Shown: positions 56 to 5,612, counted from the stretch's first letter. The stretch is 5,612 nucleotides of DNA from a virus (IMGVR_UViG_3300045988_001123:1-5612), one strand, 5' to 3'. Made by a program: numbers and translations. The notes: generated from the letters alone by a model not told the origin.

Positions 56-200
56 GCCTTACGGACTGCAAAAGGCCTTAACAGAAATCGGAGAAGATAC
101 AAGCAAAGCAATTGACAAAAACGTACCAAAAGGAAGCGAAAAACACAAAAGTAAGGCCGGAGTAACGCACGGCGGAAAAGGCGGTGATATTAAAAAGTGA
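1..200 (+). CDS. VP2 minor capsid / DNA pilot protein, C-terminal part (continuation of 4921-5612 across the circular junction; first full codon at 3; stop TGA 198-200)
   Basis: The frame is open from the window start (W Y N A A Q S W Q Q M L S S T Q M T P Y G L Q K A L T E I G E D T S K ... G G D I K K stop). It is in phase with the ORF that runs off the 3' end once the 55-nt redundancy is collapsed. Total length is 278 aa. Confidence 0.85.
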   Translation, partial: WYNAAQSWQQMLSSTQMTPYGLQKALTEIGEDTSKAIDKNVPKGSEKHKSKAGVTHGGKGGDIKK

Positions 201-1216
201 GTTGTTACAAACCGTTAATACGGCTGTACAACCCGGAAAACAAAGACATAAGCGGGCGGGTGTATTCACTTGCCCGCTTTTCTGAAATATCGGGAAAACA
301 GCTCAAATATGAAGATTTGATGTACAGAAAAGACGTAATGTTGATACCATGCGGACAGTGCATCGGATGCAGAATAAGACAAAGAGAAGACTGGGCAACA
401 CGTATAGAATTAGAAGCACGAGACTATCCGAAAGAAGAAGTGTGGTTTATCACACTAACATATGACGATGACCATGTACCAGGAATGATTGTAAAAACGG
501 GTGAAATCATGCGAAAAGTACAATACGTCTGGAAACCGGGAGAGAAGCGCCCTGAAAGCGTGCAAACGTTACTGTATACTGACGTTCAAAAGTTCTTAAA
601 ACGTCTCAGGAAAGCTAATAGGGGCAAACTACGCTATTTTGTGGCGGGAGAGTATGGAGAACAGACAGCAAGGCCGCATTACCACATGATACTGTATGGA
701 TGGCAACCAACAGACCTGAAACACCTGTACAAGATACAGCACAACGGATACTTCACAAGCCAATGGCTAGCAAACCTATGGGACATGGGTCAAATACAGA
801 TAGCACAAGCAGTGCCAGAAACATATAGATATGTTGCAGGGTACGTCACAAAAAAAATGTACGAGATAGACGGCCAAAAAGCAAACGCATACTATGAGCT
901 AGGGCAACAAAAGCCTTTTGCATGTATGAGTCTCAAGCCAGGCTTAGGAGACCACTATTATCAAGAACACAAAGCGGAAATCTGGAAACAAGGATATATC
1001 CAATGCACAAACGGCAAGCGAGCACAAATTCCGCGTTATTATGAAAAAATGATGGAAGCCGAAAACCCACAAAGATTGTGGAGAATTAAACAGAACAGAC
1101 AAGCAGCAGCAATAGCAGAAAACCGACTAAAGTATGAAAACACAGACTTTGCAGAACAGTGCAAGACAAAAGAAAGGGTGATAAAGAAGCAAATGAAGAA
1201 GAGAGGGACAATCTAA
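197..1216 (+). CDS. VP4 replication initiation protein (HUH rolling-circle endonuclease, Microviridae A/VP4 family)
   Basis: 339-aa ORF with a GTG start. Extended SD AAGGCGGTGAT at 178-188 lies 8 nt upstream. The N-terminus MSCYKP...IPCGQCIGCR matches the typical gokushovirus VP4. Motif 1 is WFITLTYDD, the HUH motif PHYHMILYG has codons 677-685, and the double-tyrosine motif is YVAGYVTKK (Tyr codons 830-832 and 842-844; compare phiX174 A YVAKYVNKK). Confidence 0.92.
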   Translation: MSCYKPLIRLYNPENKDISGRVYSLARFSEISGKQLKYEDLMYRKDVMLIPCGQCIGCRIRQREDWATRIELEARDYPKEEVWFITLTYDDDHVPGMIVKTGEIMRKVQYVWKPGEKRPESVQTLLYTDVQKFLKRLRKANRGKLRYFVAGEYGEQTARPHYHMILYGWQPTDLKHLYKIQHNGYFTSQWLANLWDMGQIQIAQAVPETYRYVAGYVTKKMYEIDGQKANAYYELGQQKPFACMSLKPGLGDHYYQEHKAEIWKQGYIQCTNGKRAQIPRYYEKMMEAENPQRLWRIKQNRQAAAIAENRLKYENTDFAEQCKTKERVIKKQMKKRGTI

Positions 1217-1237
1217 CGGTATCACTAACGGTGTCAC
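1214..1237 (+). repeat. Tandem 12-mer TAACGGTATCAC / TAACGGTGTCAC spanning the VP4 stop codon
   Basis: Two adjacent 12-nt units differ at one position. The second contains GGTGtCACC, a 4+4 inverted repeat. Confidence 0.8.
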
Positions 1238-1239
1238 CT

Positions 1240-1276
1240 AGCCCAGTACCTATCAAGTAAGGTACTGGGCTTTTGT
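1240..1276 (+). terminator. Rho-independent terminator downstream of VP4
   Basis: Perfect stem aGCCCAGTACC (1240-1250) pairs with GGTACTGGGCt (1261-1271). The loop is about 8-10 nt and is followed by TTTTGT. It lies 24 nt after the VP4 stop. Confidence 0.8.
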
Positions 1277-1327
1277 CGTCTAAAGGCTCCATATATCAAA
1301 CTATTCAGTCTATCAAATTACTAAATC

Positions 1328-1381
1328 TATAGCGCACGTGCGCACACGCGCGATAGCGCGCACGCGCGCACGCGCGCTATA
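1328..1381. repeat. GC-rich imperfect palindrome / long hairpin with two alternating purine-pyrimidine tracts
   Basis: Pairing position i with 2709-i gives 21 Watson-Crick pairs out of 25, in blocks of 8 bp, 7 bp, an isolated pair at 1345/1364, and 5 bp, with mismatches at 1336, 1344, 1346 and 1347. The tetraloop is ATAG (1353-1356). The perfect 12-bp palindrome GCGCACGTGCGC lies at 1332-1343. Strict Pu/Py alternation runs over 1332-1352 (21 nt) and 1356-1377 (22 nt). The element is flanked by TATA...TATA. Confidence 0.9.
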
Positions 1382-1476
1382 ATATTAACTTGTTGTAGAA
1401 GTAGTAGTAGGCAATGTGGAAAAGTTGATAAGTGCTAAAATTTAACGTTAAAGCGTAAATAAAAAGCAAAAAACAG

Positions 1477-1588
1477 TGTTGAAAGATTTGTTGAAAATTT
1501 GTTGAAATGTTGAAAGTTCGTCAAAATGACGGAAATCATTGTGCAATATTTTGTTGAAAACCTGTTGAAACTGTTAAAACTGTTGAAA
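1477..1588 (+). repeat. Iteron-like array: 8 direct copies of TGTTGAAA in two clusters
   Basis: Perfect copies start at 1477, 1489, 1500, 1508, 1552, 1563 and 1581. The variant TGTTAAAA starts at 1572. Within-cluster spacing is 8-12 nt. The clusters are separated by a 36-nt spacer containing the palindrome CGTCAaaaTGACG (1519-1531). Degenerate copies may lie upstream (tgttgtagaa 1391-1400, agttgata 1423-1430). Confidence 0.9.
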
Positions 1589-1680
1589 ACGCGCACAGCG
1601 CTAAAAATGAATGGATTAGCCGAGTTCCGCATGCGCTCCACACGGCAAGGCGCTAAAGCGCCATTCAAACCAAAAAACAA

Positions 1681-1709
1681 TTGACGTGTGGCAAAATATA
1701 TGATACAAT
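1681..1709 (+). promoter_or_regulatory. Sigma70/SigA-type promoter with extended -10
   Basis: The -35 is TTGACG (1681-1686). The spacer is 17 nt and ends in TGa. The -10 is TACAAT (1704-1709). The promoter sits about 25 nt upstream of the first gene of the long + strand gene block. Confidence 0.7.
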
Positions 1710-1734: not shown

Positions 1735-2124
1735 ATGATTAAAAGCTACATCATGGACACAGACGCAAACGAAAAAGTAGGTCAACACTTTAAAGTGCGA
1801 GAATTTGCATGCAAAGATGGCTCGCAAGTCGTGTTCATCGACAGCTATTTAGTGTCCATTCTGGATATCCTCAGAAACCAAGTCGGTAAGCCAGTATACA
1901 TAAACAGCGGATACAGGACACCGACAAGGAATAAAAAGGTAGGCGGTGCAAAGTACTCATACCACATGCGAGGAATGGCAGCAGACATCCGGATTGAAGG
2001 CATGACCGCAAAAGAAATTGCCGACAAACTGAATAAAATCATTCCGTCTGGATGCGGCATTATCGTGTACAACACATGGGTACACATTGACACACGTACC
2101 AAAACCTACAGAAAGGGGGTATAA
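1735..2124 (+). CDS. Zn-dependent peptidoglycan peptidase, M15 / LAS superfamily (Peptidase_M15_3-like), putative endolysin
   Basis: 129 aa from ATG 1735, with SD GAGGGAG at 1724-1730. Motifs seen: FKVREFACKDG, SGYRTPTRNKKVGGAKYSYHMRGMAAD and WVHIDTR. These give the H-x6-D...H zinc triad (H77 codon 1963-1965, D84, H117). No signal peptide or TM segment is visible. Confidence 0.8.
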   Translation: MIKSYIMDTDANEKVGQHFKVREFACKDGSQVVFIDSYLVSILDILRNQVGKPVYINSGYRTPTRNKKVGGAKYSYHMRGMAADIRIEGMTAKEIADKLNKIIPSGCGIIVYNTWVHIDTRTKTYRKGV

Positions 2125-4920: not shown

Positions 4921-5612
4921 ATGAGTGGATTATCTGGACTCTTAACAGCACTAAACGTAGCGGGAAACGTAGCGAACACAATCGGAACTTTTGCAGGAGC
5001 AGCTAAAAACATAGCCGGAGCGTTTGGTGGATGGGGGCAAACAGGCAATAGCCAAAGTAGCGGCGGCAGCACAAGCCAAGGCGGCGGACACTCCGAAAGC
5101 GGAAGTCAATCGGGCACCAACGTGCAGCAAGTCAATGACTGGTTAAAACAGGCATACGCATACCAAGGACAAGAAGCAGCCATGCAAGGCAAATACAACA
5201 GCCAGAGTATGTTAAAACAGATGGGCTATAACACGCTACAAGCAATCATGCAAGGCGTATACAACCACATCGAAAACAGTGTAGCAATGAACTACAACAG
5301 CGCAGAAGCACTAGCAAACAGGGACTGGCAAGAGCACATGTCAAACACAGCGTACCAGCGAGCCGTTGAGGACATGAAAAAAGCAGGGATTAACCCTATC
5401 TTAGCATTCGCAAACGGCGGCGCAAGCACACCGGGAGGAAGTGCAGGAACAATCAGTGGAGCAAGTATGGGACTTGCAAGCAGCAGCGCACTAGGAGTAA
5501 GCAGAAGCGGAGGATTTGTGCCTAACGCATACGAAAGCAACAGTTGGAGCAAAAGCGACTGGTACAATGCAGCGCAAAGCTGGCAGCAGATGCTCAGTTC
5601 TACACAAATGAC
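4921..5612 (+). CDS. VP2 minor capsid / DNA pilot protein, N-terminal part (runs off the window and continues at 1-200)
   Basis: ATG 4921 is the first possible start, because an in-frame TAA lies at 4918-4920. I translated the frame by hand and found no stop to 5612. It has a hydrophobic Gly/Ala-rich N-terminus, a G/S/Q-rich low-complexity segment, and the hallmark NTAYQRAVEDMKKAGINPILAF. Confidence 0.88.
   Translation, partial: MSGLSGLLTALNVAGNVANTIGTFAGAAKNIAGAFGGWGQTGNSQSSGGSTSQGGGHSESGSQSGTNVQQVNDWLKQAYAYQGQEAAMQGKYNSQSMLKQMGYNTLQAIMQGVYNHIENSVAMNYNSAEALANRDWQEHMSNTAYQRAVEDMKKAGINPILAFANGGASTPGGSAGTISGASMGLASSSALGVSRSGGFVPNAYESNSWSKSDWYNAAQSWQQMLSSTQM
5558..5612. repeat. Terminal redundancy copy 2 (identical to 1-55)
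   Basis: Same 55-mer as 1-55. The VP2 reading frame is continuous through it. Confidence 0.97.

Follow-up and report, generated by a model that had tools for sequence, protein, structure and literature searches.

Why should a gokushovirus genome of 43-45% G+C keep, beside the gene for its replication initiator, a (CG/CA)n palindrome of about 85% G+C? The genome which raises this question is IMGVR_UViG_3300045988_001123:1-5612, a stretch of 5,612 nucleotides (nt) which was analysed as a whole and is called the window below. It is the complete circular genome, 5,557 nt long and with identical 55-nt ends (1-55 = 5558-5612), of a human-gut gokushovirus (Microviridae) which is 83-84% identical to KX513868 and KT264791, and all its recognisable genes lie on the plus strand. 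The palindrome lies in a non-coding stretch of 518 nt (1217-1734), adjoining the gene for VP4, the rolling-circle initiator (Rep), and on the VP4 side of the best promoter (see Table 1 for the features). Gokushoviruses are the dominant single-stranded DNA (ssDNA) phages of the human gut and their replication origins are unmapped. We tentatively propose that the palindrome is a complementary-strand origin hairpin, similar to the single-strand origins (sso) of rolling-circle replication (RCR) plasmids, and that it acts on a viral strand which is antisense to the genes.

A preliminary description of this DNA, made from the sequence alone, had announced a 54-nt GC-rich imperfect palindrome of 25+4+25 nt with the loop ATAG and, inside it, two tracts in which purines and pyrimidines alternate. 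Both are found: the tracts measure 21 nt (1332-1352) and 22 nt (1356-1377), the next-longest alternating run of the genome has 12 nt, and both tracts exceed the length of about 12 base pairs (bp) from which a GC-rich alternating sequence is counted as prone to form Z-DNA. On the plus strand the arms are 84% complementary, with 21 Watson-Crick pairs and four A·C mismatches, and the 54-mer folded as ssDNA gives -24.1 kcal/mol (z=-1.66), a value which 13 of the 200 dinucleotide shuffles reach as well. The minus-strand 54-mer, whose loop region reads GCGCTATCGCGC, forms a stem of 25 bp without interruption, in which four pairs are G·T; its energy is -29.8 kcal/mol (z=-3.95), and none of the 200 shuffles folds as well. 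Genome-wide, the palindrome gives the strongest 60-nt fold of both strands (-24.4 kcal/mol on the plus strand and -30.3 kcal/mol on the minus strand), against means near -5 kcal/mol with a standard deviation of 3. The arms double as direct repeats of 87-88% identity, with a period of 26 (87%) and a period of 8 (GCGCACGC). This low complexity accounts for part of the palindromic symmetry; it leaves unexplained that all four mismatches of the plus strand are A·C, hence that the stem of the minus strand is perfect.

For comparison we used a close set of 80 viral contigs whose VP4 is 90-96% identical to that of the window, and a distant set of eight GenBank gokushoviruses which share the module neighbouring the palindrome; individual loci are designated by L numbers. 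The palindrome stands at the same site in nearly all close relatives (about 72, with a VP4 identity of at least 90%) and in six of the eight distant gut gokushoviruses examined. It comes in about 50 distinct variants, with arms of 14-26 nt and with loops which are A-rich on the plus strand (ATAG, GTAG, AAG, AAA, CAAA, AATA, TAG, TAA, TAAG, TTAA and TAAT). Almost all the variation among them consists of transitions, which keep the alternation of purines and pyrimidines. The stem reaches into lineage-specific flanks which do not alternate, TATA/TATA in the window, ACAGG/CCTGT in L125, ATTG/CAAT in L121 and CTG/CAG in L045. At 13 of the 20 pair positions at least two types of Watson-Crick pairs occur. 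We aligned 17 gap-free variants of 43 nt, in which 98.2% of the cells pair on the minus strand against 85.6% on the plus strand; compensatory change affects four pairs, with 17 cells altered on both sides, although these variants are related and the cells are not independent events. At 0.262, the covariation score exceeds that of shuffles (0.193), and none of 500 shuffles reaches the observed value. When the register is slid by ±2, pairing is still 88-92% and the number of compensatory cells is zero. Changes which preserve the stem, the check suggested in the preliminary description, are found in close and in distant relatives.

The relatives also tell the two strands apart. Over the first 20 pairs, the paired share is 99.1% for the minus strand and 82.4% for the plus strand, and one pair is A·C in 17 of the 17 aligned variants on the plus strand, that is U·G in all 17 on the minus strand. 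Over the about 50 variants we counted 177 A·C mismatches against 14 G·T on the coding strand, again among related sequences rather than as independent events. The hairpin of the minus strand is the more stable one in 50 of the 59 extracted entries and the other nine are ties, eight of them spurious entries which are not the palindrome, so that L026 is the sole tie of a real variant. A residue T of the plus strand nearly always faces A, while A often faces C. The plus strand is A-rich (A 36.9%, T 18.2%), with an A:T bias on the coding strand of 2.0 for the whole genome, 2.7 at third positions of codons and 1.4 outside coding DNA; a bias of 1.4-2.7 to 1 is too small for a mismatch ratio of 12.6 to 1. 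The asymmetry recurs in lineages whose flanks cannot be aligned (L120-L127). Classically, such a pattern, T facing A and A facing C, is left by selection for a structure of the opposite strand, and it indicates that pairing was selected on the minus strand.

Hence the folding strand is most likely the complement of the genes. The preliminary description had assumed the reverse, namely that the plus strand is packaged and has its complementary-strand origin in the hairpin, A·C mismatches included. Characterised Microviridae are described as positive-sense, and the plus-strand hairpin, at -24 kcal/mol, still is the strongest plus-strand fold of the genome. However, the C-to-T changes which wobble would make neutral are nearly absent on the plus strand, where the disruptive A·C is abundant (177 against 14), its fold is no better than those of composition-matched shuffles, and every member of the clade has a conserved nick-type hairpin, described below, on the other strand. 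We regard a plus-strand origin as very unlikely. What stands of the earlier proposal of a host-primed complementary-strand site is that the hairpin is real, conserved and placed in a non-coding replication region, and that this function fits it best; the assumption about the strand does not stand.

A hairpin which is perfected by G·T pairs could also be explained at the level of RNA, as an intrinsic terminator or as a stabilising hairpin of a sense or antisense transcript. The stem is GC-rich, G·U pairing would perfect the hairpin of a minus-sense RNA, and the minus-strand tail is moderately T-rich in the window (GATTTAGTAATTTG). Yet the terminator scan calls the palindrome on neither strand, the tails of relatives are devoid of T-runs (ATAAAGCATATC and CTAGCGACAG on the minus strand, GGCTCTTC on the plus strand), and no credible promoter is directed into the palindrome. 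No Rfam family matches it at threshold, only look-alikes of microRNA precursors below threshold (23.9 bits where 90 are needed, 21.4 where 64 are needed). A role in RNA thus appears highly improbable to us. A coding role was discarded as well: there is no open reading frame (ORF) at the palindrome and its lengths vary out of frame.

The second marker of the strand is a neighbouring hairpin, 57 nt away from the palindrome and 24 nt beyond the end of the VP4 gene, which we consider as the candidate viral-strand origin, or double-strand origin (dso). Its loop TATCAAGTAA is invariant among relatives, and its stem covaries (GCCCAG/CTGGGC, GCCAAG/CTTGGC, GCCTAG/CTAGGC, and GTACC/GGTAC against GTGCC/GGCAC). 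Here too, variants are A·C on the plus strand and G·T on the minus strand (GTACC/GATAC in L004, L016 and L018). In the window it resembles a terminator of VP4, with TTTTG downstream; this T-run is not conserved in relatives, which have TATTG, TAGGT or TAACC. We gathered 80 diverse gokushovirus genomes with an alignment of VP4, and most of them have a hairpin with the loop (C/T)TACTTGAT and the 3' flank (A)GGTGACACC. Chp2 has the same architecture on its coding strand, with a 14-bp stem, the loop TCTACTTGAT and the flank AGGTGATA. From 44 gokushoviruses, including Chp2 but none of the clade of the window, we built an alignment, A2, which displays an invariant CTTGAT loop, a 9-bp stem and an invariant TGA.A / GTGACACC flank, and from it the covariance model R1. 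The model finds the nick-type hairpin of the window on the minus strand with 50.7 bits (E=3.3e-12), while the next match has 7.2 bits and the same hairpin read on the plus strand has 6.4 bits. It matches 77 of the 80 close relatives, which are all those with sequence there, once each and always opposite VP4. The match is likewise opposite the genes in the distant gut relatives. It is on the gene strand in Chp2, in genomes outside the training set, phiMH2K among them, and in about 70 diverse gokushoviruses; of these other genomes, none but L204 and, weakly, L197 share the inversion of the window. To judge from these matches, the nick-type hairpin is an element of the whole subfamily which has been turned round in this gut clade. 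In L204, which is outside the close clade and has its nick-type hairpin opposite the genes (151-700, minus strand), two elements precede that hairpin on the 5' side: a GC hairpin GAGCGCACcgtaGTGCGCTC at a distance of about 35 nt, and a perfect DnaA box TTATCCACA at about 130 nt.

The preliminary description had kept, as a fallback, the idea that the palindrome itself is the hairpin nicked by Rep (VP4). A hairpin near the rep gene is what one finds in many HUH systems. However, members of the R1 family have a stem of at least 8 bp, an invariant CTTGAT in the loop and an (A)GGTGACACC 3' flank, while the palindrome has variable loops without the CTTGAT core and is not recognised by R1; it is the adjacent hairpin, with its invariant loop, that R1 recognises (50.7 bits). 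We therefore abandoned this idea, which can practically be set aside.

The GenBank record of phiX174 places its rep_origin at CAACTTG^ATATT, and the loop core ACTTGATA of the nick-type hairpin is identical to the core of this site. By this likeness VP4 would nick at ACTTG^ATA, between window positions 1254 and 1253 of the minus strand. Protein A of phiX174 nicks the strand which is then displaced and packaged (PMC5714925). By analogy, if VP4 cuts ACTTG^ATA here, the viral strand would be the complement of the genes; the displaced strand is thus deduced from the strand of the nick-type hairpin. Two independent markers agree on this point: the nick-type hairpin by its orientation, and the palindrome by the asymmetry of its wobble pairs. 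We take the minus strand as the candidate viral strand. The virions of this clade may therefore carry the antisense strand, the palindrome being its complementary-strand origin and the G·T wobbles the footprint of tolerated C-to-T changes; we hold this as a working proposal, somewhat short of an even bet. The composition of the strands does not help: the coding strand is A+C-rich here, with 42% G+T, and has 37% G+T in phiMH2K and 53-59% in Chp1, Chp2 and SpV4, but many genomes whose hairpin is on the gene strand are G+T-poor too, so that we discarded base-composition skew as uninformative about polarity.

Read from 5' to 3', the minus strand presents the module, the palindrome (1381..1328), two degenerate nick cores (1330..1294), the nick-type hairpin, the TGAYACCGTTAG repeats (1237..1213) and antisense VP4. 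A 196-nt stretch of it folds as the palindrome and the nick-type hairpin in separate stems, at -48.7 kcal/mol (z=-7.6). The mechanism which we propose is the following. VP4 would nick the strand complementary to the genes, in the loop of the nick-type hairpin (ACTTG^ATA), and rolling-circle synthesis would displace the nicked strand, which would then be packaged. The palindrome would be in the last stretch to be displaced, because it lies 74-127 nt 5' of the predicted nick. On a strand coated with single-stranded DNA-binding protein (SSB), the (CG/TG)n hairpin would persist as a stable 25-bp duplex island of G·C and G·T pairs, at or beside which the host primase, RNA polymerase or primosome would start the complementary strand. 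A change from C to T on the single-stranded viral strand would give the G·T pairs that we observe, and the hairpin would tolerate them. Cutting by VP4 at this site, packaging of the cut strand and priming at the palindrome are all three deductions from the arrangement of the locus.

Two repeats complete this arrangement. The tandem 12-mers just 3' of the nick-type hairpin include the conserved GTGACACC flank and form a candidate binding site for Rep. The 17-nt repeat between the two hairpins, read on the minus strand, repeats the nick core in degenerate form; at this site many relatives possess a second nick core which is perfect, CTACTTGATAGAC, outside hairpins (L004, L008, L017-L019, L028, L035, L046, L065, L067, L077, L078).

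Table 1. Position and description of the features of the palindrome locus and of its surroundings, in window coordinates.
Feature	Position	Strand	Description
VP4/Rep gene (HUH rolling-circle initiator)	320..1216	+	ORF; Pfam REP_ORF2-G2P, E=5e-17; annotated as VP4 in relatives
Tandem 12-mers CTAACGGT(A/G)TCA	1213..1237	-	minus strand reads TGAYACCGTTAG; just 3' of the nick-type hairpin, overlapping the VP4 stop codon
Candidate viral-strand origin (dso) hairpin	1240..1271	-	12-bp stem; minus-strand loop TTACTTGATA; R1 match 1281..1221
17-nt tandem repeat, 2.2 copies	1294..1330	-	between nick-type hairpin and palindrome; reads (A/G)TTTGATA(G/T)
(CG/CA)n palindrome	1328..1381	-	arms 1328-1352 and 1357-1381 (25 nt each); loop 1353-1356, ATAG on +
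Conserved non-coding module	1382..1590	both orientations in relatives	AT-rich TATAATATTAACTTGTTG; (TAG)n 1396-1410; box-like repeat TGTGGAAAAGTTGATAAG from 1415
Repeats of the module	1477-1590		about 9 copies of TGTTGAAA; central inverted repeat TTCGTCAAAATGACGGAA at 1517-1534
CG/CA cluster ACGCGCACAGCGCT	1590..1604		borders the invertible module on the right; has CGCGCAC in common with the palindrome arms
Best sigma-70-type promoter of the window	1681..1709	+	TTGACG, 17 nt, TACAAT, with TG; upstream of the peptidase and structural genes
Peptidase M15	1735-2124	+	family match

ssDNA replicons need start sites for their complementary strand (PMC5714925), and PMC9865509 proposes hairpins for such a role in other Microviridae. 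The palindrome shares several properties with the sso of RCR plasmids (ssoA, ssoT, ssoU, ssoW) and with single-strand initiation (ssi) sites: it is non-coding, its intrastrand pairing is extensive and conserved (a stem of 20-25 bp), and its structure is strand-specific, as judged from mismatches and pairing. It also lies just upstream of the predicted nick on the putative displaced strand, and natural variants lack it, as sso elements can be lost. It differs in being 54 nt long rather than about 130-200 nt, in being pure (CG/TG)n and in having no RSB or CS-6-type motifs. The sso lies 5' of the dso in rolling-circle plasmids, and the minus origin of f1 has the same position relative to its plus origin. 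In f1 and M13 a complementary-strand origin hairpin is found directly 5' of the Rep nick hairpin, in one intergenic region of the viral strand, as here; but the f1 hairpins mimic a promoter (-35, -10) for RNA polymerase while the palindrome has no promoter-like content, and the phage family and the Rep are different. In the Bullavirinae, the primosome assembly site of phiX174 and the primase hairpins of G4 answer the same need in the same family: they are stable intergenic hairpins of the viral strand, free of SSB, which recruit host priming proteins. They have no sequence similarity to the palindrome, and they are far from the viral-strand origin, which is itself inside gene A and not in a hairpin, whereas 57 nt separate the two elements here, on a viral strand which is apparently antisense. 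Another precedent is that of the conserved intergenic hairpins of reekeekee- and roodoodoo-microviruses, which, in the accessible text of PMC9865509, were found by folding of intergenic regions, show compensatory substitutions and are proposed to initiate the negative strand; they belong to other clades and have other sequences, and that text reports neither strand asymmetry nor a nick-type neighbour.

Hairpins which act as complementary-strand origins are therefore a known kind of element; what is new is a strand-asymmetric (CG/TG)n hairpin beside a nick hairpin in the Gokushovirinae. The locus offers three cis elements: a family of nick-type hairpins recognisable throughout the subfamily, a strand-specific GC hairpin, which is the best candidate for second-strand initiation, and a conserved flanking module. 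Should the strand be as we propose, a large and abundant clade of the human and animal gut would package antisense DNA, unlike all characterised Microviridae, and strand-specific viromics, analyses of mutation spectra and designs for synthetic "resurrection" would be affected. Should it be otherwise, the hairpin would still be a well-defined target for deletion and complementation. In the searchable literature we found no description of a gokushovirus origin, of this family of nick hairpins, of such a (CG/TG)n hairpin beside one or of the polarity of the virions of this clade.

Several points weigh against an antisense complementary-strand origin. The strand which Microviridae package is described as the coding one. 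The conserved sso motifs are all missing: the ssoA subtype is defined by the RSB and CS-6 (TAGCGT) motifs on the displaced strand, and CS-6 is not on the minus strand of the palindrome, TAGCG being seen only on the plus strand of some variants, so that the palindrome does not qualify as ssoA by RSB and CS-6. A strong hairpin just 5' of the nick-type hairpin is common, but not universal, in other gokushoviruses. The very low complexity of the palindrome, whose arms are direct repeats, also means that registers shifted by 2 still pair well. Finally, the palindrome is missing from L023, L072 and L080, and L022 has a truncated form which has lost the left arm; the element is therefore dispensable, replaceable or lost in assembly in these genomes, and because it is missing or truncated in four of the about 72 relatives it is possibly non-essential. 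In L023 a different hairpin (CCATTTTCGGGagttCCCGAAAATGG) is found further right. We also looked for a general rule of a strong hairpin 5' of the nick-type hairpin in gokushoviruses and gave it up: such hairpins are frequent, but the 5' side is no stronger than the 3' side (-14.6 against -13.2 kcal/mol on average). The way in which the windows of this comparison were selected biases its contrast between strands, to which we gave no weight.

These losses bring in another explanation, according to which the palindrome has no function and is the by-product of a slippage-prone GC microsatellite, or quasi-palindrome, at a recombination junction, where it mediates rearrangements. Its length varies in steps of 2, it has the direct repeats of periods 8 and 26, and natural deletion and truncation variants occur (L022, L023, L072, L080); it lies exactly at the left breakpoint of an inversion (1378-1590), at the border of mosaic blocks with 0-3 extra hairpins, and some contigs end inside it (L048). 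But a by-product would hardly keep about 85% G+C in a genome of 43-45% G+C across lineages with unalignable flanks, nor show compensatory changes and a pairing above that of every shuffle, and the fact that T faces A while A often faces C on the plus strand points to selection on the pairing of one strand. We hold a by-product without function to be quite improbable. Apart from L048, contigs end within about 100 nt of the palindrome in L002, L025, L053 and L076; these ends are probably breaks of the assembly at the inverted repeat.

The inversion concerns the conserved non-coding module which adjoins the palindrome. The conservation of this module (1382-1590) exceeds that of the coding DNA; a match, at least a partial one, is present in 45 GenBank gokushovirus records, of which 27 cover at least 80% of it. 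It is placed between VP2 and VP4 in KT264784 and MT121961. Six close relatives have the segment 1378-1590 inverted, the breakpoints being near 1378 and 1590, and so do several distant relatives (loci listed for the module in either orientation: L015, L020, L023, L032, L042, L055, L121, L123, L124, L126, L127). In a tree, the inverted copies group into few clades and are not scattered, which points to rare and old events. The inversions probably took place between the palindrome arms and the CG/CA cluster at the right boundary, with their common CGCGCAC. When the module flips, the palindrome stays on the VP4 side, and its polarity relative to the nick-type hairpin and to the genes is constant whichever way the module faces. 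This constancy speaks for the palindrome, and not the module, as the strand-specific element.

This behaviour bears on a role in the duplex: in the supercoiled replicative form a Z-DNA flip or a cruciform would separate the nick-type hairpin from the AT-rich, (TAG)n-bearing module, as a boundary or as a buffer of torsion. The two GC-rich tracts, which alternate strictly over 21-22 bp where no other run of the genome exceeds 12 nt, are like known (CG)n/(CA)n Z-DNA tracts, and the variation by transitions only keeps the alternation even in lineages with unalignable flanks. The position is also suitable, between the nick-type hairpin and an AT-rich block, and in genomes with an inverted module the AT-rich end abuts another small CG/CA cluster (L127). 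However, a duplex role gives no reason for G·T mismatches on one strand only. Z-DNA tracts are not characterised by dyad symmetry, which here runs on into flanks without alternation (ACAGG/CCTGT, for example), by compensatory changes or by a wobble confined to one strand. Besides, a stem is most stable when it is composed of alternating CG, and the palindrome remains on the VP4 side when the module flips. A Z-DNA or cruciform function is in our opinion unlikely, and the complementary-strand origin hairpin of the antisense strand remains the reading that we prefer.

Turning to the module itself, we noted its layout (1378-1432): an AT-rich block, TAG AAG TAG TAG TAG, a spacer of 4-5 nt, which has 4 nt in the window, and tandem GT(G/T)GAAAA repeats, with (TAG)n conserved in 77 of the 77 modules. 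The basal unwinding system of the bacterial oriC consists of a DnaA box, a spacer and DnaA-trios, 3'-GAT-5' (PMC8287927). The likeness of the module to this layout is a lead and not a finding. We rejected the reading of the module repeats as DnaA boxes, a strict box being present in only 30 of the 77 modules; likewise, the perfect DnaA box TTATCCACA is not enriched in the diverse gokushoviruses (8 observed against 3.1 expected). The central inverted repeat of the module (1517-1534) reads TTCGTCA-AAA-TGACGAA in the consensus of the clade, with TGACGGA in the window, and we take it, with the 1477-1590 repeats, to resemble the 0A boxes of Spo0A (TGNCGAA).

For temperate gokushoviruses a dif/XerCD attachment site provides the background (PMC7062461). 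We considered such an attP site here and rejected it: the best matches to the dif sites of E. coli and B. subtilis are 16-17 of 28 positions, none of them in this region. The search with a VP4 query in 185,579 bacterial genomes found no prophage relatives, and we found no plasmid homology of the non-coding region. The two longest ORFs of the minus strand have no family match.

The gap which holds the palindrome also contains, in relatives, 0-3 extra G/C-rich hairpins, for instance AAGGGGTTGACTtaaaAGTCAACCCCTT and ATCCCCCCtagaaGGGGGGAT, and thus forms a variable cluster of hairpins. They lie between the nick-type hairpin and the palindrome in L001, L003, L005, L039, L050-L054, L062, L073 and L124-L126, and beyond the palindrome in loci of the L004 type. 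On the right, the untranscribed gap ends at the best sigma-70-type promoter. Besides VP4 and the peptidase, PHROGs identify a small DNA-binding protein, VP3, VP1 and VP2 on the plus strand, and VP2 spans the circular junction of the ends of the window.

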